Shown here: in pieces, positions 6,974 to 32,000 of the stretch
How positions within the stretch are numbered: the first letter of the stretch is position 1
How the letters are laid out: every line of letters begins with the position of its first letter
Notes under the pieces: generated by a model
What the model saw: the letters and a program-made list of their open reading frames with translations, nothing else
What the model was told of the DNA's origin: nothing
Database searches by the model: none
Origin: Pseudodesulfovibrio piezophilus C1TLV30
GTDB taxonomy: Bacteria > Desulfobacterota > Desulfovibrionia > Desulfovibrionales > Desulfovibrionaceae
NCBI RefSeq assembly: GCF_000341895.1
Contig: NC_020409.1
Coordinates: 120,001-152,000, forward strand
Length of the DNA: 32,000 nucleotides
Reading direction: 5' to 3'
Program-made: the position numbers and the translations under genes

Positions 6974-9652
6974 GTGGCGATTTTTAAATGCGATTCCTGC
7001 GAATACAAACGGAATGTCCCGGATTCTCTTACGGGGAAAAAAGCAAAGTGCCCTGAGTGCGGTCGAGGTGTGACCATTGTCGAGACCCTCTTGCCGGGTG
7101 GTCATTCTTTTGAAAAAACAGGAAGCATTGAGCTGGGTGTGACCAATTCAAATAGGGTGGATCAGATATCCCAGGGCATAGGTGAGGGCGAAGATATTGT
7201 CTGCGATCAGTGTGGGCATGTGATGCAGGACTCTGATGAGGCGATGACCACGTGTGCCCATTGTGGTCATGCTCTCAAAAGAAACTCTGACGCGCTGAAG
7301 GTGACAGAAGAGAATATCGACGTAAGTGACTTGGCCAACGAAAATGCGCCCGATATTTGGGAGTCTGATTTTCCGGGCAATCTCAATGTTTCAAGCACTT
7401 CTCTTGATGCAGAAGAGGAGTGGCAGGGGTGGAGACTGTTTGAAGGGAATCTTGCGTTGAATGTTTTTTCCGGTTTGGTCTCCGGTCTTCTCGCCTTTTA
7501 TTTTGCAGTGGCCATGTCGTTGCTCGCAGCTTCTCAAAACGGCGTGCATGAGTTGTTGCCGTATATCCTCTCCACTGCTTTGACGGGGATGGCTATTGGG
7601 TGTTTTGTTTTTGCCTTGATGAGCAGAATTCCATTTGCTGTTTCCGGCCCTGGCACCATTTCAGCTGCGATTCTTCTTTTCTTTCTTGGTTCTATCTATC
7701 GAACCATGGCAGGAACCTATTTGCCAGAAGAAATAACAGCTACCATCATTGCATCCATCATTGTCACTTCTCTCTCCGCTGGTGCTGGTTTGTGGCTGGT
7801 GGGTCGACTGAAGGCCGGAGAACTCACCAGATATATACCTATTCAGATCATTGGTGGAGTGATTGGGGCTGTTGGAGTGTGCGTGGTCATTGTGGCCTTT
7901 GAGTGGATGGGGAACTTTCCCATGGATTGGGGAAATGTTCTCGATACTTTCAAGAATTGTCTTCTTGGGATGAATGCCGCTGAATGCGTTTCAAGTATGG
8001 GGCCAGGGGTTGTTTTTGGCCTCGTTCTCTTCATGGGACTTCACAGATTCAAGAATTCCCTGTTTTTGTTAGGTCTTCTTCTCGTCGCCTCTGCCGTCGG
8101 CTATGCCTGTGGTATATGGGGCAATGATGTCATTACACAGTCTCTTGCCATGCCTGTCCCTGATTTGGAGGGAGGCGTTCCCTTATTTACGGTCAAGTTG
8201 CTTCAGTCTGGATTTCATCAAATCCAATGGCATATCATGAGAGAGAATATCCTCTTTATCGGCGCGTTGGCTTTGCTCGTCATGCTGACAACCATGTATA
8301 GAACAACCAGACTCGAATTGCTCTTGGGGAAAGAAGTCGATTTGAGCAAAGAGTTCGAGGCTCTTGGCATCACAAACATTATTTCCGGGTTATGCGGAGG
8401 TATGCCGTCGGCCCTTTCCTATGGTCGGAGTGCCGGTAATCGTGCTACCGGCGCAACCGGACCACTTTCCGGCATTGTTGCGGGTATCGTGTGTGCTGCT
8501 GGATTATATTTTGTGGATACCGTGCTTCCTCTGATTCCTCGGTTTGTGCCGGAAGGATTGTTGCTTTTTTCTGGGGTTGCGCTTGTGAATGGGTGGATGT
8601 TCAAAGCCAAAACTGCTTTTACTCGTCGAGACGATCTTTGGATGTTGTGGAGCGTTTTTCTCACGACTCTTCTATGCGGGCTGGTGGTTGGAGTCGGATT
8701 CAGTGTCGCTTTGGCCTTGATGGTAACTGTGAGCCGGAATAGCCGAGGTGGTGTTATACGAAATATTCTTTCAGGAGCGAACCACCGCAGCAATGTTGAT
8801 AGAGCTCCGGCTCAGCAACGGACACTCAAGGAGTATGGCGATCATATTCATGTCATCCGGTTGCAAGGTTTTCTCTTTCTGGGGTCAATGCGAAGTCTTA
8901 TCAAGAATATCCGTGAAAGGATGGAGGAAAGAGACCTTCTGCCGGTGGAGTATCTGATCTTGGATTTTCGAATGGTGAGTGGGGTCGCTTCTGCTGCGAG
9001 CGTCGGCTTTGAAAAGTTGCATCAACTTGGAGAAGAGTATGGGATTGATATAATCATAACCAGTGCGCCGCTCGAACTTGAAGAGCATCTTGAGAAGAGT
9101 GGACATCTCGGTGATCACCACGGTGCATTCAAGGTCTTTTTCAATTTGGATTATGCATTGGAATGGTGTGAAAACCATGTGCTGGATGCGGAAAATATGC
9201 TTCACATGAAGCAGATGACCTTACCTGAGCTTCTGGCTCCGGTCTTTCCTGAGCCGAAATATATTCCTGCCCTCATGAAGGTCTTGAAACGAGTCGAAGT
9301 TGCGAAGGGCGAAGTCCTGTTCAGGCAGGGGGATATTTCTGATTCACTCTTTTTTGTGGAATCCGGCCGACTTGATGTAGAACTGGAGATGGAAGGCAGA
9401 AAGATTTTGCGGTTGAAAAAAGTAGGTCCGGGTGCCGTGTTCGGGGAAATGGGGATTTATACCAGAGAACCTCGGACTGCGACTCTCAAAGCTACAGAAC
9501 GCTGCGTTTTGTACATGATGACAACAGAGAAATTGGCAGCCGTAGAAAAGCGCGCTCCCATGCTCGTTTCAGCTCTTCATAAGTATATGGTCACAATGTT
9601 GTCAGGTCGACTCGGTGACGCTAATATCAAGGTCCGTGACTTGATGTCCTAG
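6974..9652 (+). CDS. SulP-family anion transporter fused to N-terminal zinc ribbons, a STAS domain and a C-terminal cyclic-nucleotide-binding domain
   Basis: 892-aa ORF with a GTG start. It has two CxxC...CxxC ribbons (CDSC..CPEC and CDQC..CAHC) and about 10-12 hydrophobic helices of SulP type. A STAS-like block is IHVIRLQGFLFLGS...LILDFRMVSGVASAA. A CAP/cNMP block is FRQGD...FGEMGIY...PRTATLKA. Confidence 0.85.
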   Translation: MAIFKCDSCEYKRNVPDSLTGKKAKCPECGRGVTIVETLLPGGHSFEKTGSIELGVTNSNRVDQISQGIGEGEDIVCDQCGHVMQDSDEAMTTCAHCGHALKRNSDALKVTEENIDVSDLANENAPDIWESDFPGNLNVSSTSLDAEEEWQGWRLFEGNLALNVFSGLVSGLLAFYFAVAMSLLAASQNGVHELLPYILSTALTGMAIGCFVFALMSRIPFAVSGPGTISAAILLFFLGSIYRTMAGTYLPEEITATIIASIIVTSLSAGAGLWLVGRLKAGELTRYIPIQIIGGVIGAVGVCVVIVAFEWMGNFPMDWGNVLDTFKNCLLGMNAAECVSSMGPGVVFGLVLFMGLHRFKNSLFLLGLLLVASAVGYACGIWGNDVITQSLAMPVPDLEGGVPLFTVKLLQSGFHQIQWHIMRENILFIGALALLVMLTTMYRTTRLELLLGKEVDLSKEFEALGITNIISGLCGGMPSALSYGRSAGNRATGATGPLSGIVAGIVCAAGLYFVDTVLPLIPRFVPEGLLLFSGVALVNGWMFKAKTAFTRRDDLWMLWSVFLTTLLCGLVVGVGFSVALALMVTVSRNSRGGVIRNILSGANHRSNVDRAPAQQRTLKEYGDHIHVIRLQGFLFLGSMRSLIKNIRERMEERDLLPVEYLILDFRMVSGVASAASVGFEKLHQLGEEYGIDIIITSAPLELEEHLEKSGHLGDHHGAFKVFFNLDYALEWCENHVLDAENMLHMKQMTLPELLAPVFPEPKYIPALMKVLKRVEVAKGEVLFRQGDISDSLFFVESGRLDVELEMEGRKILRLKKVGPGAVFGEMGIYTREPRTATLKATERCVLYMMTTEKLAAVEKRAPMLVSALHKYMVTMLSGRLGDANIKVRDLMS

Positions 9653-27100: not shown

Positions 27101-29457
27101 ATGCCACCCTCAAAGCTGGCGGCAACGTGGCCGTGTCCACGATGGAAACAACCTTCAAGCATCGTGCTTCCGGTTCGGATTTCAATACCCATACCGATTC
27201 GACCTTCAACCGCAAGAGCACCATCAAGACCGACGGCGCATTGACCGTCGAGGCCGGCCAGGACGTGGCCATCCACGGCAGTGAGATCGAATCCGGCGGT
27301 GACGCATCCATCAAGGCGGGCGGCAACGTCTCCGTGACTGCCGCCACTGACACGACCGATTTCTATGCCCACAACGAGGGCGGTGGAGGCGGTTTCTTCG
27401 GCGGCAAGAAATCCACCACCAGGGAGATGAAGCAACAGACTACCATCGCTTCGGTCATCGAGTCCGGCGGCTCGGTGGATGTCGAGGCCGGAACCTCGGG
27501 GCAAGGCGATCTGATCCATCAGGGTAGCCGCATCCAGGCCGCGCAGGACGTCACCCTCAAGGCCGAGGGGGAGATTCAGGTCACGCCCAATCAGGTTCAG
27601 AACTACTCGAAATTCCAGGAAGAGAAGTCCGGATTCATGGGTGCCAAGTCCATGGACCTGAGCGAACTGGACACCACCACGAATGACCGGGCGAAGATCA
27701 AGGCCGGGCAAAAAGTGGCGATAACGTCCAAGGATAACGTGATCATCCAATCCGCGCGCATCGAGTCCGGCGACACCATGACCATCGAGTCCGAGGAAGG
27801 CCAGGTCTCCATGCTGGTCAGCAAGGACAGGAAATATGAGCGCAAGCTCAAGACGGACATGGGCTTTCTCACGTGGTCGTCCAGCGACAAGGGGACGATA
27901 GACGAAACCGTTATCCACACGCTTATCGAGTCCGGCGGCGCGCTGACCATTACCACCCCCCAAGGCGTGGTGGTGGAGTTCAAGGAGTCCACGGGCGACG
28001 TTCGCAAGGACGCTGCTCTGCTCTCCAACGTGGAGGGCCTCGAATGGATGGGCGACCTTCTGGAGCGTGACGACGTTGACTGGCAGGCAGTCCAGGAAAT
28101 CCATGACCAGTGGTCGAAATCCGACGGCGGCCTCGGCGCTGGCGGGATGTTGATCATAGCTCTTGTGGCTTCGGCTGTGACAGCGGGAGCAGCGTCAAGC
28201 TTGGCGTTGGCCGCAACTGGGCTTGAATTCGCAATGGTCAATGGTGTCTCAACTTTGGTCGTTTCAGGTGCGGAGACGCTGACTGTAGCCAGTAGTATGC
28301 AAATGGCAATGTACACCGCCCTTACCGCAGGCATTGTGTCCATAGGGTCACAGGTTATTACAAGCGTTGCTGACGCTGCTGCTGGCGGTGATCTCGGTAG
28401 CAATCTCTCTGGCATTGCCTCTATCGACGGCTTGCGCTCGCTTGCCGCATCAATGATCATGGCCGGAACGCTCAGCACATATGCCAGCGATTTTGCCAAG
28501 ATGGGCTCTGCTGGTGAGGTTATGGCAAAAACCACGGTAAAAACCCTCACCAGTACAATCGTTGAGGGCGAAGGACTTGAGGAATCTTTCCGCACGGCCC
28601 TCGGTTCCACCTTTGCAAGCTATGCAAAAGGTGAAATAACCTCCGAGGAATTGAACGACACGGTCAACCTCATCCTCACGGGCGCAACCGGAGCGGCAGG
28701 CGCTGCCGTAGCAGGAGGAGACCCGGTACAGGGTGCCTTGAGCGCCATTGTCAGCGAACTTGCGGAGCAGATAAAGGCACCGGAGTTGAGTGAAAAGCAG
28801 ATAAAGGAAGATGGCCCAAAGGCAAGGCTTTCAAGTTGTTCATATGATGACGCTTGTTCAGGGTCAGATGGCTTCAAGCGATTGACAGACGCTGAAATTG
28901 TTCAAAAGGTCCCAGAATTGCCTGCTCTTTTGAGTGACAGCGATATAGGAATGACCACCCAAGTTTTTTTCAACGAGGAAACGAAAGAGTTGGTGGCAGT
29001 TTATCGAGGCTCAGATGAGATGAAGGACTTTACATCCACAAACCTCCCTCAGGCTTTCGGCACTGATCTTGGGCAGTATACCAAGCTAAATGAGCAACTC
29101 AATGCAATTAAAGCATTAGCGGACACTCTCCACGCAAAAACAATAACTGCTACTGGACACTCCCTTGGTGGTGGCATGGCAGTTGCTGCAGCTTCCACAA
29201 AATATGTTTCAAGTGCAGTAGTTTTTAATCCGGCTGGAGTCCATAAAGACACATACACCGCCATCGGAGGGGATGTGAACATAGTACAAAATAAGGTCAA
29301 ATCATATTCGAGTAGGGGCGATCTCTTGACGAATTTTCAAGACATGTTGAATTTCATGCTCCCCACTGCGGTAGGCGAAAGATATGTCATTGAAGGTGGT
29401 GGAGCTCATGGCATTGAAGCCATGTTGTCGGCCTTTGAAACACCAACCCAACCGTAA
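24133..29457 (+). CDS. tpsA: TpsA/CdiA-like filamentous-haemagglutinin-family exoprotein with a C-terminal lipase-like toxin domain
   Basis: 1774 aa with GGAG 7 nt before the ATG. It has a signal peptide and a TPS domain (PLVNIAAPQNGMSHN.F.DFNV, ILNEVTG, ANPNGISINGGGF). A long run of FHA-type repeats follows (G-x-I/V-x-A...L.I.A.G.I). Next comes an Ala/Gly/Ser-rich hydrophobic DUF637-like segment. The C-terminal alpha/beta-hydrolase domain carries GHSLGG. Confidence 0.9.
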   Translation: MLEFVKHLLIAFLIGLILCPPHMVHAAGITPDAAAPAANQATVDAAPNGVPLVNIAAPQNGMSHNMFTDFNVGAQGVILNNAVAPGVSQLGGALAPNANLGGTAASTILNEVTGNGRSSIQGYTEIFGQSANYILANPNGISINGGGFVNTPKATMTTGTPQFSGGAFQGLDVRGGDILVEGAGINANNIDAFEIVTRAAQINADIYAKQLNIITGQNRHNPVAGTTTALAPDGSAAPAVSIDSAALGGMYAGRIKLVGTEAGVGVNTTGIVQATENLEMTADGRIQIKGKISSAQNLTITSANGEVAVSGSVRAADTATLTGQTVTVAKLDSADTAIVSADKAVVNAGTLNNDHLIAGDSKTTVTATDVNNTGTIYSAGTALYRVGGTLHNNRGILLSKGDMVLEGSAAGQKMGTLQNDSGQIESLDGSLTFRATTFNNNNSRFVLTQGSSELAYSEGGYWYYGDEGDECYSLFTRYIGSPRFGVSNVAHQLTPAQFSAAGIDASRHVVTRDELLAAIAETDQKLAADANYLTSTQKTDLARARSVAASGRAYIITGMGSGVVYSATTTQDTATGQNLGSSIAAQGNILIEAGDAKNTVSKITTATGDITINANTFENVGMGIYERTTYKWGSGIFQNHNSPSVIPLGGGTEVALKATSYAYGTLDAGNRVIISSGAVANGVTERGGIINPPAPATQQQKVADVTTLTDGLPSNGLFKANTNPAQNYQIETNPALTNLDTFYGSDYALSRMGFDPNAEANKRLCDDYCETRLVREQMFELSGRRFLESGTTTDAEQFKALMDNAVQAHTDLSLSVGISLTADQVAALTSDIVWFESREVNGEQVLVPVVYLASASLEKIAQGGSVIVGKEVAINTTGDMANAGLIKADSQVTITADNFFNNKGTVSGRNVAVTATDSVRNTGGTIEGENVALKAGNDVVIAADTIQQSNADTTYTQRAKAGKVRAENSLSIEAGRDIGILGSDVEVGGDATLKAGGNVAVSTMETTFKHRASGSDFNTHTDSTFNRKSTIKTDGALTVEAGQDVAIHGSEIESGGDASIKAGGNVSVTAATDTTDFYAHNEGGGGGFFGGKKSTTREMKQQTTIASVIESGGSVDVEAGTSGQGDLIHQGSRIQAAQDVTLKAEGEIQVTPNQVQNYSKFQEEKSGFMGAKSMDLSELDTTTNDRAKIKAGQKVAITSKDNVIIQSARIESGDTMTIESEEGQVSMLVSKDRKYERKLKTDMGFLTWSSSDKGTIDETVIHTLIESGGALTITTPQGVVVEFKESTGDVRKDAALLSNVEGLEWMGDLLERDDVDWQAVQEIHDQWSKSDGGLGAGGMLIIALVASAVTAGAASSLALAATGLEFAMVNGVSTLVVSGAETLTVASSMQMAMYTALTAGIVSIGSQVITSVADAAAGGDLGSNLSGIASIDGLRSLAASMIMAGTLSTYASDFAKMGSAGEVMAKTTVKTLTSTIVEGEGLEESFRTALGSTFASYAKGEITSEELNDTVNLILTGATGAAGAAVAGGDPVQGALSAIVSELAEQIKAPELSEKQIKEDGPKARLSSCSYDDACSGSDGFKRLTDAEIVQKVPELPALLSDSDIGMTTQVFFNEETKELVAVYRGSDEMKDFTSTNLPQAFGTDLGQYTKLNEQLNAIKALADTLHAKTITATGHSLGGGMAVAAASTKYVSSAVVFNPAGVHKDTYTAIGGDVNIVQNKVKSYSSRGDLLTNFQDMLNFMLPTAVGERYVIEGGGAHGIEAMLSAFETPTQP

Positions 29458-29467
29458 ACCGAATATT

Positions 29468-30418
29468 ATGAACGTAATCATTAAAGTTACAATGTTATTG
29501 GTGTGCCTCTGCCTACTCAATGCATGTGAGGGCATGTTTGCTGTTACAAAGGTCGCGTTACAACAACTTCCCAAAAGAGAAATTCGAGTATCCGACGTAT
29601 TCCCTGAGGACCGCATGGCCCAGAAGTTGGCTACTGCCGCTTCCGAAGGCGATCTGGAAAGAGTGGATGAACTCATCGCAAATGGGGCGAACCCCAATGC
29701 AGTTGGGGAAAACGGAATCACTGTTATCGGATGGCTACTCTACCGTCCTAATAAAGCTGGACTCAAGTGTCTCTTTGAGCATGGCGCAGACCCTAATGCC
29801 ATTTGGGATAAATGGGACACGCAGCGAGGATGGGAGTGGGCATTCATTCATCTGGCAACAGAATTATCGCCAAAAATTGGTACTGATTACCTCCAACTGG
29901 CATTGGATGCAGGAGGAAATCCCAATTTGATGGTGAACAATTATTATGAATGGCCCATTTTGATTACTATAGAAAGAAAGTATCTAACTGCTTTTGCTGT
30001 ACTATATTCATCGGGCGCCAATCTGAACTACAATGGGCATTATTCTCAAACACCGTTGATGCGTTCAGTAACTATTGAAAATTTTGAATTATGTTATTTT
30101 CTGCTTAAGCATGGAGCAGACTATATGGCCGGTGCGCCATATGACTGGGCCAAAGAATTTGCAAAAGGGAATGACATCTCAGGCCCAATGTCAGCCATAT
30201 GGTCAAGCCTTCTCCATGATATCCTGAACCAAGAAGATTCAATCCACAACATGTGGTTTTGGCGTTGCATCGACTTTCTTGAAAAACAAGGAATGAATTT
30301 CGCCATTCCTGCGGATGTTGAAAAGTTTCGCCCTGCAGTCTTGGATACAAAGCCTACAGCTTATGAGCTTGAGATTGAAAGACAGAAAATGAAAAAGGGG
30401 AATGGCAATGAGTCGTAA
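29468..30418 (+). CDS. ankyrin-repeat lipoprotein (candidate immunity protein)
   Basis: ATG at 29468, 11 nt after the tpsA stop. The lipobox signal peptide is MNVIIKVTMLLVCLCLLNAC. ANK-like repeats include AASEGDLERVDELIANGANPNA, LFEHGADPNA, ALDAGGNPN and LLKHGADY. Confidence 0.8.
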   Translation: MNVIIKVTMLLVCLCLLNACEGMFAVTKVALQQLPKREIRVSDVFPEDRMAQKLATAASEGDLERVDELIANGANPNAVGENGITVIGWLLYRPNKAGLKCLFEHGADPNAIWDKWDTQRGWEWAFIHLATELSPKIGTDYLQLALDAGGNPNLMVNNYYEWPILITIERKYLTAFAVLYSSGANLNYNGHYSQTPLMRSVTIENFELCYFLLKHGADYMAGAPYDWAKEFAKGNDISGPMSAIWSSLLHDILNQEDSIHNMWFWRCIDFLEKQGMNFAIPADVEKFRPAVLDTKPTAYELEIERQKMKKGNGNES

Positions 30419-31037
30419 ATACTTAATTTTTATGCTCGCTTTGCTTGTTTTATCTGCAAATGCATCTGCGGTAGGAAGTACGGACCTCTCACAGGTGAAA
30501 ACCATTACTCAGACTATCAAACTCTACCAAGGCGTCCTTACTTTTCCACCGCCCATGTGGGTGAATGAAGTCAAAGACCTTGGCAACTCAAAATTCTTCC
30601 GGGACCAGCAACGCAATCTGTTTACCCTTGAACAAATCCCCAAAGACCAGGAATTTGATAGCTGGACGAACCTCTACGGTGTTTATGGTTTCTACCTACC
30701 GGAATACGACATGAAGCGATTCATCAACGAGTCATTGAATGCCCTTGCCCTTGGCTGCAAAGTGCAGACGAAGTCCAAGATCGTCAACGCAGAGAATGGC
30801 ATGATCATCATGACCTATATGTGCAAAGACCTCGTGGACCCGCTTGTTGTCAATGGCTACAACACGGAGAGCGGTTTTCTTTTCATGAGTCAGGTCGATC
30901 AATCCTTCGCCAAAGTCTACATGGCTTGGCGCTCAAAACAGGAATACATGAAGACCGACAAATGGCCCATGAACGCGGAAACCATGACCGAAGCCGTCGA
31001 ACGAATGGGAAAGATACGGTATTTCAAGGTAGACTAA
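30408..31037 (+). CDS. secreted protein of unknown function (last gene of the TPS operon)
   Basis: Signal peptide MSRKYLIFMLALLVLSANASA-VG. AAGGGG lies 7 nt upstream of ATG 30408 (alternative ATG at 30402). It overlaps the end of the ankyrin gene. No motif was recognised. Confidence 0.55.
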   Translation: MSRKYLIFMLALLVLSANASAVGSTDLSQVKTITQTIKLYQGVLTFPPPMWVNEVKDLGNSKFFRDQQRNLFTLEQIPKDQEFDSWTNLYGVYGFYLPEYDMKRFINESLNALALGCKVQTKSKIVNAENGMIIMTYMCKDLVDPLVVNGYNTESGFLFMSQVDQSFAKVYMAWRSKQEYMKTDKWPMNAETMTEAVERMGKIRYFKVD

Positions 31038-31104
31038 GCAAAATTAGAATCAGGGGATTTTCGGGGATACCTTACTAATTAAATTCCACAAATAGTGGAA
31101 AAGA

Positions 31105-31133
31105 GGCCCGGTTCACGCCGGGTCTTTCTCTTG
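31105..31133 (+). terminator. rho-independent terminator ending the TPS operon
   Basis: GGCCCGG-TTCACG-CCGGGTC forms a 7-bp stem with one G.U pair, followed by TTTCTCTT. Confidence 0.65.
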
Positions 31134-31302
31134 TCCTTTGACATAGCCTAACCATCACCACCTGTAACAGACAGAGAGGCGATGAATAAATCAACATCCT
31201 TATGATGACGGTGCTGTTCAATTAATTACAGCTATATTATTTACCTGAACATTCGGCGTTTTTGCGTTCAATACATCCTTACCCCCACTTCCGCTACGGA
31301 GT

Positions 31303-31311
31303 GGGGGGGGG
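31303..31311. repeat. homopolymeric G9 tract, part of a C5/G-tract hairpin
   Basis: CCCCCACT (31282-31289) pairs with AGTGGGGG (31300-31307). The G run extends to 31311 and is followed by CTT, as at the G8 site. Confidence 0.9.
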
Positions 31312-31334
31312 CTTATTCCAAAGGAGGAAATTCG

Positions 31335-31934
31335 ATGAATGATAGTCGAAACGAACTGCAAACTCTCCAACCAACCGAGCACGATGCCGGTGAGATATTT
31401 AACGGCAAGAACTCTAACCGCACGGTTCGCGGATTTGCGATTCCGTGTTCATTCACTCCGGACCTCAACCCTGAATATTTGTTCCATGACTCCAGCCGCG
31501 ACGCCGTGGTCTGGTTCATGGATTCGTCTGATCCACTGTACGTATTCGGGCCTGCCGGTTCGGGCAAAACTAGTCTCATCAAGCAACTCGCGGCTAAGCT
31601 GAATTACCCGGTGTTCGACATCACCGGCCATGGGCGATTGGAGTTTCCTGATATGGTCGACCATCTGACCTTGGAAGATTCCAACATGTCTTTTCAGTAC
31701 GGACCGCTTGCGCTGGCCATGAAGTTCGGCGGTCTTTTTCTCCTAAATGAAATCGACCTTCTCAAGCCGGCGACTGCTGCCGGGCTGAACGGTATCCTGG
31801 ACGGTGATCCGCTGTGCATCCTGGAGAACGGCGGCGAGGTCATCAAGCCGCATCCGTTGTTTCGGTTCGTGGCCACGGCCAACACCAACGGCGGGGCTGA
31901 TGAGACCGACCTTTACCAGGGGGCACAGCGGTAA
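31335..31934 (+). CDS. CobS/MoxR-like AAA+ (AAA_5) ATPase, interrupted by an in-frame TAA; homology continues to the window end
   Basis: AAGGAGG lies 7 nt before the ATG. Walker A is GPAGSGKTS and Walker B is LFLLNEID, followed by FRFVATANT. After TAA (31932-31934) the same frame reads NLAFMDRFWLCEIGYPSPKVE, which matches the conserved ..DRF....YP...E block of this family. Confidence 0.8.
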   Translation: MNDSRNELQTLQPTEHDAGEIFNGKNSNRTVRGFAIPCSFTPDLNPEYLFHDSSRDAVVWFMDSSDPLYVFGPAGSGKTSLIKQLAAKLNYPVFDITGHGRLEFPDMVDHLTLEDSNMSFQYGPLALAMKFGGLFLLNEIDLLKPATAAGLNGILDGDPLCILENGGEVIKPHPLFRFVATANTNGGADETDLYQGAQR

Positions 31935-32000
31935 AATCTGGCGTTTATGGATCGTTTCTGGCTTTGTGAAATCGGCTACCCAAGTCCCAAGGTAGAGCGG

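Follow-up and report, generated by a model that had tools for sequence, protein, structure and literature searches.

A Tle6-like lipase domain on a CdiA-like exoprotein of Pseudodesulfovibrio piezophilus, and the ankyrin-repeat lipoprotein encoded next to it

We analyzed a stretch of 32,000 nucleotides (nt) from the genome of Pseudodesulfovibrio piezophilus C1TLV30 (contig NC_020409.1, positions 120,001 to 152,000 of the forward strand; hereafter the window), which carries a two-partner-secretion (TPS) operon, tpsB-tpsA, followed by genes for an ankyrin-repeat lipoprotein and for a protein of 211 amino acids (aa) that we term ORF211 (ORF, open reading frame). The locus is likely a contact-dependent growth inhibition (CDI) system of the CdiB/CdiA-like type Vb, in which the polymorphic C-terminal (CT) cargo of TpsA is a Tle6-family phospholipase and the ankyrin lipoprotein provides immunity. 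The evidence consists of homology, fold, an aligned catalytic triad, a lipobox, gene linkage, and covariation among related loci, and it includes lesions in tpsB.

The lipase/ankyrin-lipoprotein pair belongs to an already characterized family (Tle6/Tli, 2023-24), of which the P. piezophilus member is uncharacterized. Tle of Enterobacter cloacae is a phospholipase A1 (PLA1) neutralized by Tli, a lipoprotein with six ankyrin repeats (PMC11470151); the pair falls in none of Tle1-5, and the name Tle6 was proposed for it (Jensen et al. 2023 J Bacteriol 205:e00113-23; Jensen et al. 2024 Nat Commun). Jensen et al. reported related lipase domains on VgrG, PAAR, DUF4150, and Rhs proteins, and had also pointed to copies on CdiA, accompanied by ankyrin genes, in deltaproteobacteria, the group that includes P. 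piezophilus (C1TLV30 belongs to the Desulfovibrionales, formerly counted among the deltaproteobacteria). Lipase-like alpha/beta-hydrolase toxin domains were also listed in polymorphic toxins by Zhang et al. 2012. The initial annotation of the window, made from the sequence alone, did not recognize a lipase plus an ankyrin lipoprotein on a TPS chassis as a characterized system; this view had to be given up, because the pair is Tle6/Tli and its CdiA-borne copies were noted by Jensen et al. The features that set the present locus apart are delivery by a type V secretion system (T5SS) without a VENN motif, the absence of crosslink residues, a third gene whose product has a PsbP/Mog1-like fold, and an inactivated transporter gene.

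The C-terminal lipase domain

Searched as a single sequence against the PDB sequences, the CT domain gave one meaningful match, chain 7ubz_B, labeled 'T6SS lipase effector' (T6SS, type VI secretion system; E = 3.4e-7). A profile of the CT family, built from 12 members (alignment A1), matched the same chain with E = 2.4e-27 and 99.5 bits, aligning profile positions 14-233 with chain residues 47-302; fungal class-3 lipases came next at about 1e-5, and the matches of this profile search comprised Tle6 and fungal class-3 lipases only, with no Tle1-5 structure among them. The AlphaFold2 model of the domain (predicted local distance difference test, pLDDT, 85.5; predicted template modeling score, pTM, 0.87) found as its top Foldseek match 9cys_A, the E. 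cloacae Tle (E = 2.7e-10, TMq 0.67, 22% identity), followed by feruloyl esterase A and by Rhizomucor and Penicillium lipases. Since the profile match extends over the whole domain and is accompanied by a fold match and a conserved triad, the resemblance to Tle is not due to chance, and the C-terminal alpha/beta-hydrolase domain proposed by the initial annotation is borne out by both the profile and the Foldseek search. In addition, a metagenome contig, L001, encodes a 99.6%-identical product that is listed under PF26363. The lipase family is very large: at E<=1e-3 it comprises 15,188 representative clusters, and 845 remain at E<=1e-30. As a separate observation, the top NCBIfam match of the CT domain (aa 1618-1755, window positions 28987-29400) was to the first 132 positions of 'SA1320 family' (E = 1.8e-12, far under the cutoff), a hint that proteins of staphylococci contain related lipase-like domains.

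The motifs AVYRGSDEMKDF, TGHSLGGGMA, SSRGDLL, and GGGAHGIE, from which a nucleophile, an acid, and a His had been proposed at the outset, are all found in TpsA. The three candidate residues align with the Tle triad and are conserved across the family, the predicted triad Ser1677/Asp1730/His1759 corresponding to Ser341/Glu393/His448 of Tle. The nucleophile Ser is invariant (161/161 family sequences). At the acid position, 95 of the 161 have E and 65 have D, and the His is present in every sequence long enough to include the site (151/151). The acid is thus Asp here and Glu in Tle. The E. cloacae proteins (PDB 7UBZ, 9CYS) and the Serratia marcescens homologue Slp belong to the same lipase family and have the GHSLGG elbow.

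Several lid-region residues (D83, Q91, G94, Q99, Y100) are common to the CT family and Tle. Together with the fact that the sole characterized family member is a PLA1 (PMC11470151), and with the periplasmic lipoprotein immunity, which fits a cell-envelope or membrane target, their retention argues for a phospholipase and against an esterase acting on some other substrate, such as lipoprotein acyl chains, lipid A, O-acetylated peptidoglycan, or another ester, with an effect that could be toxic or merely degradative. For such an esterase speak the feruloyl esterases that rank next after Tle by fold, the low identity to Tle in the structural alignment, and the fact that an alpha/beta-hydrolase sequence cannot reveal substrate specificity, yet we consider it quite unlikely. 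The fungal class-3 lipases and FaeA (Rhizomucor miehei, Thermomyces, A. niger) share the fold and the elbow (Foldseek E-values of 1e-7 to 1e-4, TM of about 0.6-0.66), whereas their identity to the CT domain is 13-17% and they lack a toxin context. We take the CT domain as a probable phospholipase that would act from the periplasm.

Two local differences from Tle stand out. Tle gains activity only once methylglyoxal has linked its Arg180 to Lys461, a crosslink that depends on Tli and is aided by Glu458 (PMC11470151). Glu458 (His+10) corresponds to the conserved Glu1769, whereas Lys461 (His+13) is replaced by Thr1772 and no counterpart of Arg180 is evident in the CT domain, so the Tle-type methylglyoxal (MODIC) crosslink cannot form at the same place; a Lys at His+13 is present in only 9/151 family sequences. 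The second difference is a Cys1569-x5-Cys1575 pair, absent from Tle. It occurs in exactly 9/161 family sequences, all of them long polymorphic-toxin proteins or their fragments: the window TpsA, proteins on TPS/FHA chassis (P0001, P0062, P0095, P0103, P0126, and P0178), P0145, and P0170, in which a C-terminal motif resembling an Rhs core seems, by eye, to precede the lipase. A periplasmic disulfide between the two Cys residues is a reasonable inference from this alignment.

The ankyrin lipoprotein and the third cassette gene

The TAA stop codon of tpsA ends at 29457 and, after a 10-nt spacer, the ATG at 29468 begins MNVIIKVTMLLVCLCLLNAC. The mechanically called ORF (29384..30418) begins too early, ATG 29468 being the conserved start (alignment A2). 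The LLNAC lipobox and the ankyrin repeats of this downstream ORF, both noted in the initial annotation, were recovered, the protein passing the Pfam thresholds for Ank_4 (44.9 bits), Ank_2 (38.2 bits), and Ank (32.1 bits). Across 16 aligned homologues, conservation of the lipobox Cys is 90% or more, and five G-x-[DN]-x-N turns are followed by a conserved MWFWRC..FLEK cap, a pattern that suggests five to six repeats. The non-ankyrin C-terminal 98 aa found no match among the PDB sequences. Met23 (ATG 29534) lies three residues past the lipobox Cys with GAGGG 2 nt upstream, and JGI gene calls begin the ankyrin gene there (P0016, 294 aa). Its placement is reminiscent of the internal starts from which cytosolic Tli is made in E. 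cloacae; the homologues do not keep Met23, however, which speaks against a conserved internal start here and differs from Tli.

Lipase and ankyrin genes were found adjacent by tblastn in more than 30 loci, in Lysobacterales, Actinomycetota, Bacteroidota, Planctomycetota, and others. In the TPS-linked group, the identity of the ankyrin protein to that of the window tracks the identity of the CT domain while the chassis is conserved: the CT and ankyrin values are 70% and 67% in L006, 45% and 36% in L007, 43% and 37% in L008, 43% and 40% in L010, 33% and 39% in L009, and 34-38% and 35-42% in the three modules of L086, with chassis identity staying at 59-70% in L008 and L010. Orphan ankyrin genes without a nearby lipase occur in L003-L005, as expected if they are immunity genes. 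The proposal that the ankyrin protein is a periplasm-facing immunity candidate following the logic of Tle and Tli thus gains from four observations: Tle is the nearest solved structure by both sequence and fold, the lipobox is kept, the genes are adjacent, and the two proteins diverge together. We infer that the ankyrin lipoprotein is the cognate immunity protein that neutralizes the lipase.

Related loci contain similar modules. In locus L086 of Nitratidesulfovibrio termitidis (KI632512.1, 3106961-3125680), the lipase-CT/ankyrin/ORF211 module is present three times in tandem. One copy sits on a full TpsA, the other two are orphans with about 650 aa each of FHA-2/pretoxin sequence, and a phage integrase gene stands at the end of the locus; in L089 the cassette lies between insertion sequence (IS) elements. 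No orphan module was found in the window itself. TPS-borne copies of the lipase occur in Pseudodesulfovibrio and Nitratidesulfovibrio, with an eroded remnant in Salidesulfovibrio, and carriers of Rhs/Tc type include Pleionea and others.

These modules also bear on a reading in which TpsA, like ShlA or FHA, is a cytolysin or adhesin for eukaryotic cells or surfaces, and the ankyrin protein is unrelated to it or a secretion helper. In its favor, haemolysins and adhesins are numerous among TpsA proteins, effectors that act on hosts often have ankyrin repeats, and weak NCBIfam matches to Legionella Ank effectors were obtained; nevertheless, this reading is very improbable. The ankyrin protein carries a lipoprotein signal peptide, which is not an effector architecture, and the polymorphic CT/ankyrin module on a conserved chassis, the orphan arrays, and the orphan ankyrin genes are hallmarks of interbacterial toxin/immunity systems. 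P. piezophilus is, moreover, a free-living deep-sea sulfate reducer.

The third gene of the cassette, which the initial annotation had overlooked along with the absence of VENN and the state of tpsB, overlaps the end of the ankyrin gene by 17 nt. Its product ORF211 has no Pfam and no NCBIfam match. The AlphaFold2 model (pLDDT 89.6) is a PsbP/Mog1-like sandwich for which Foldseek returned PsbP and Mog1 and, more weakly, the T6SS immunity protein Tsi3, DcrB, and the Eag chaperone SciW. The predicted alpha-beta-alpha sandwich is shared with these proteins (Foldseek E-values of 1e-4 to 1e-2), as is the periplasmic location with Tsi3 and DcrB, whereas TM is only about 0.35-0.5 and there is neither sequence similarity nor a Pfam family. 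Homologues are hypothetical proteins, all those with organism names coming from Desulfovibrionaceae. A homologue follows the ankyrin gene in most related loci of sufficient length, directly 3' in L007, L010, L087, L089, and all three L086 modules, and the ankyrin proteins P0027 and P0031, like those of 468-477 aa in L086 (12631-14043) and L007 (8650-10083), end in a fused ORF211-like domain (pairwise E = 5e-13). Elsewhere in the C1TLV30 genome, a second, frameshifted copy of the ORF211 family (P0266, 171 aa, 76% identical over the first half) suggests another eroded cassette.

ORF211 could in principle be the true neutralizing immunity protein, with the ankyrin lipoprotein chiefly assisting the lipase as its chaperone or activator. 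Such a division of labor would echo the activating role of Tli, which is both the inhibitor in the solved Tle complex and an activator of Tle (PMC11470151), and it would suit the PsbP/Mog1-like fold, which also occurs in the Tsi3 immunity protein and in Eag/SciW effector chaperones, as well as the linkage of ORF211 to the cassette in most long-enough loci and the fusion of a related domain to ankyrin in P0027 and P0031. We nonetheless judge it unlikely, given that ORF211 keeps an identity of 58-81% where the CT domain is down to 34-45% and hence does not covary with the toxin as the ankyrin protein does, that lipase-ankyrin pairs are widespread without an ORF211 homologue, and that the ankyrin protein is the inhibitor in the solved complex.

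Chassis, transporter gene, and genomic surroundings

TpsA (1774 aa) begins with a Sec signal peptide (aa 1-26), followed by a TPS domain and FHA-2 repeats. The initial annotation correctly identified the TPS domain and the FHA repeats (Pfam TPS, E = 6.9e-46; Fil_haemagg_2, E = 2.2e-15), and had also reported a DUF637-like segment. Of the latter, the hydrophobic Gly/Ala-rich segment is there, beginning at aa 1332, and Pfam calls DUF637 on the homologous segments of P0103 (E = 5.3e-7) and L087, whereas the window TpsA itself has no Pfam match to DUF637 at E<=0.1. The pretoxin region closes with the conserved GGDPVQGALSAIVSELA, and similarity of the chassis to relatives with other cargoes stops at about aa 1543-1549, between GGDPVQGALSAIVSELAEQIKAP and ELSEKQ. 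As a side observation, the RefSeq version of tpsA (WP_231856626.1) has 1361 aa starting from Met414, with loss of the TPS domain though the 1774-aa frame is open.

The guanine-plus-cytosine (GC) content falls from about 0.57 in the 200-nt segment starting at 28601 to 0.45 in that starting at 28801. The TPS chassis (23000-28800) has about 60% GC, and both the flanking genome and the CT/ankyrin/ORF211 cassette (28800-31300) about 45%. Because of this break at the CT junction, we read the CT, ankyrin, and ORF211 genes as a cassette swapped into a 60%-GC chassis, and chassis and cassette seem to have different histories. The usual picture is that of a native chassis bearing a foreign CT domain.

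Neither VENN nor V.NN was found anywhere in TpsA, and Pfam PT-VENN gave no match. Sister alleles with other cargo do carry such motifs, with AVMNNYL before a different CT domain in the L087 TpsA and AVENNV in an L087 orphan module, so the chassis family is genuinely CdiA-like, with the lipase alleles joining upstream of VENN. In the AlphaFold2 model the CT domain folds as one unit and leaves no space for a cytoplasm-entry domain, which fits a toxin whose substrate is accessible from the periplasm.

The transporter gene tpsB is damaged at its 5' end. A 1-nt deletion at about 22373 separates the start ATG at 22355 from the signal peptide, and an in-frame TAG lies at 22483-22485. The frame 22375..22620 reads VLSRKNFYVLLALLYLVFVGGVEAHA, then APVDDAIRQQ, the stop, and QIQQQ, and has no start codon; the longest open frame, from TTG at 22543 to 24117 (524 aa), lacks the signal peptide. 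In a three-way DNA alignment, the near-identical contig L091 (JGI metagenome) has CAG at the TAG site and an extra G at about 22373, giving an intact TpsB of 614 aa, and the L087 orthologue has Glu at the TAG position. Contig L001 (1-6143), 99% identical to window positions 21686-22856 and 27015-32000, has the same TAG and is without 4.16 kb, namely the greater part of tpsB and the initial ~960 codons of tpsA, with the lipase CT, ankyrin, and ORF211 genes retained. We ruled out a sequencing error as the source of the TAG, since the independent assembly L001 has it too and a third assembly, L091, has CAG. Because L091 is free of both the TAG and the frameshift, tpsB in the window is a pseudogene, while tpsA, the ankyrin gene, and ORF211 are intact. 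The deletion in L001 is a second, independent route to the loss of delivery with the cassette kept.

Table 1 Features of the TPS locus in the window.
Feature	Position	Strand	Basis
Decayed island border upstream of the TPS operon: broken tyrosine-integrase ORFs, IS5-like DDE transposase fragment	19783..21502	.	ORF translations, GC profile
tpsB (ShlB/FhaC-type Omp85 transporter), 5' end disrupted	22355..24117	+	Pfam ShlB 8.9e-93, POTRA_2, POTRA_3
tpsA, CdiA-like exoprotein, 1774 aa, CCH47381.1	24133..29457	+	ORF, translation, exact-sequence match
TPS secretion domain, aa 27-288 of TpsA; NPNG motif at aa 137	24211..24996	+	Pfam TPS E 6.9e-46, TIGR01901 E 7.2e-17
Top-scoring Fil_haemagg_2 (FHA-2 type) stretch of three in TpsA, aa 1012-1081	27166..27375	+	PF13332 E 2.2e-15
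Gly/Ala-rich hydrophobic DUF637-like pretoxin region, aa 1332-1549 of TpsA	28126..28779	+	Sequence; DUF637 in homologues
CT toxin domain, aa 1550-1774, Tle6-family phospholipase-like (PF26363), class-3 lipase fold	28780..29454	+	Profile and fold matches
Cys1569-x5-Cys1575, putative periplasmic disulfide	28837..28857	+	Family alignment
Predicted catalytic nucleophile, Ser1677 codon, in GHSLGGG	29161..29163	+	Aligned to Tle Ser341
Predicted catalytic acid, Asp1730 codon, in SRGDLL	29320..29322	+	Aligned to Tle Glu393
Predicted catalytic His1759 codon, in GGGAHGIE	29407..29409	+	Aligned to Tle His448
Ankyrin-repeat lipoprotein, 316 aa, candidate immunity protein	29468..30418	+	Pfam Ank_4, Ank_2, Ank; lipobox
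Signal peptide and lipobox LLNAC (Cys20) of the ankyrin protein	29468-29527	+	Sequence
ORF211, third cassette gene, 211 aa, about CCH47383.1, Sec signal peptide, PsbP/Mog1-like fold	30402..31037	+	AlphaFold2, Foldseek

The island border upstream of the operon contains tyrosine-integrase fragments on the minus strand (19783-20016, 20038-20400, 20271-20777, and 21218-21502) and an IS5-like DDE transposase fragment on the plus strand (20750-21067). No tRNA gene was found in the window to mark the border, and when 21.5-32 kb was scanned for promoters and terminators, the counts did not exceed those of shuffled sequence. Downstream of the cassette, a 199-aa ORF for an AAA_5 (MoxR/CbbQ-like) ATPase (31335-31934) extends past the window edge. 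In L001 (5478-6389), the AAA_5 ORF is followed by a separate 99-aa CbbQ_C ORF and then by an rve transposase, which lies just outside the window; at the right-hand limit of the island, the AAA_5 and CbbQ_C ORFs resemble a single ATPase gene that has been split. Elsewhere in the window, an ORF of 892 aa (6974-9652) encodes a SulP-family sulfate permease together with STAS and cyclic-nucleotide-binding domains in one protein.

Proposed mechanism and significance

In the mechanism we propose, Sec would export TpsA, and TpsB would thread it to the cell surface. At contact, the FHA-2/pretoxin part would bring the 225-aa lipase into the periplasm of the neighbor, where the Ser1677/Asp1730/His1759 triad would hydrolyze membrane phospholipid; the CT domain would need no cytoplasm-entry domain because its target is accessible from the periplasm. 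The ankyrin lipoprotein would shield siblings, as well as the producer's own periplasm, which the CT domain crosses, presumably by clamping the lipase in analogy with Tli. The translationally coupled third gene, with its periplasmic PsbP/Mog1-fold product, would most likely supply an accessory or second immunity factor.

Families Tle1-Tle5 of T6SS lipases, with their periplasmic Tli immunity proteins, were reportedly defined by Russell et al. in 2013. The present pair follows the same logic, a phospholipase sent to the periplasm and a periplasmic or lipoprotein immunity protein, with no detectable sequence relationship to those five families. With E. cloacae Tle/Tli it shares the aligned acid and His, the adjacent ankyrin-repeat lipoprotein, and, putatively, a periplasmic or membrane site of action. 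It differs in having a third gene in the cassette and in delivery, which is by a TPS (T5SS) exoprotein here and by T6SS in Tle. No T6SS genes were present among the window ORFs scanned with Pfam, a scan that left out several ORFs in 11.7-16.5 kb. Judged from sequence, the TpsA lipase appears to work like Tle6 without being a type VI effector.

With the CdiB/CdiA/CdiI systems of E. coli EC93, Burkholderia, and E. cloacae, the locus has in common the upstream Omp85 gene, the TPS domain, the FHA/FHA-2 repeats, the DUF637-like pretoxin, the variable CT/immunity module on a conserved chassis, the orphan modules in relatives, and VENN in sister alleles. In contrast, its cargo is a putative periplasm-acting lipase and not a nuclease or ionophore, the window allele lacks both VENN and a cytoplasm-entry domain, the exoprotein is short (1774 aa), and tpsB is inactivated in C1TLV30. 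The candidate immunity protein is here a secreted lipoprotein, whereas CdiI is cytoplasmic or located in the inner membrane.

A number of observations weigh against a CDI system with a Tle6-family lipase and an ankyrin immunity protein. Since tpsB is a pseudogene, toxin delivery is probably dead in C1TLV30, and the delivery steps described above may not operate there. With no VENN to mark the CT domain, toxin release may differ from that of classical CdiA, and without the crosslink Lys the activation of the enzyme may differ, or the enzyme may behave differently. Of the Pfam models named in the initial annotation, the Ank models pass, whereas Lipase_3 (PF01764) stays just under its cutoff of 22, with 21.3 bits for aa 1500-1774 and 18.0 for the full protein, and its match is confined to the nucleophile-elbow region (profile positions 51-82); membership among class-3 lipases is thus supported by the predicted fold and not by the Lipase_3 model. 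Searches of the PDB with the full ankyrin protein and with its family profile revealed no specific homology to Tli, both lists being filled by DARPins and generic ankyrins. ORF211 is 50-81% identical among relatives, above the CT and ankyrin proteins and unlike a specificity-determining immunity protein; because of this greater conservation, we see in it a conserved accessory protein or co-immunity factor rather than a specificity determinant. Literature searches found no experimentally characterized CdiA-CT phospholipase or T5SS-delivered lipase.

Less probably than not, the locus may represent a Tle6 adapted to T5SS in the Desulfovibrionales whose mode of action differs from that of E. cloacae Tle/Tli. 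Such an enzyme would pass Sec unfolded and fold in the oxidizing periplasm, would be stabilized by the Cys1569-Cys1575 disulfide in place of the Arg-Lys crosslink, and would act on the filament or after VENN-less release. The PsbP/Mog1-fold protein would be an obligatory third component not described before, which would join the ankyrin lipoprotein either in co-immunity or in holding or activating the lipase in the periplasm.

The P. piezophilus cassette does not overturn current understanding. The CdiA cargoes that have been studied experimentally are nucleases, pore formers, and similar proteins, most of which must pass the inner membrane. A lipase cargo for which arrival in the periplasm is enough would be a clean tool to separate the outer-membrane translocation of CDI from its later steps, and an allele without the crosslink Lys allows one to test whether the glycation-crosslink activation of Tle is general in the family. 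If delivery has been lost in C1TLV30, the cassette would persist mainly for immunity. The three near-identical variants, with tpsB intact, with a nonsense mutation and a frameshift, and with the nonsense mutation and a 4.2-kb deletion, illustrate how the weapon is lost and the shield is kept.

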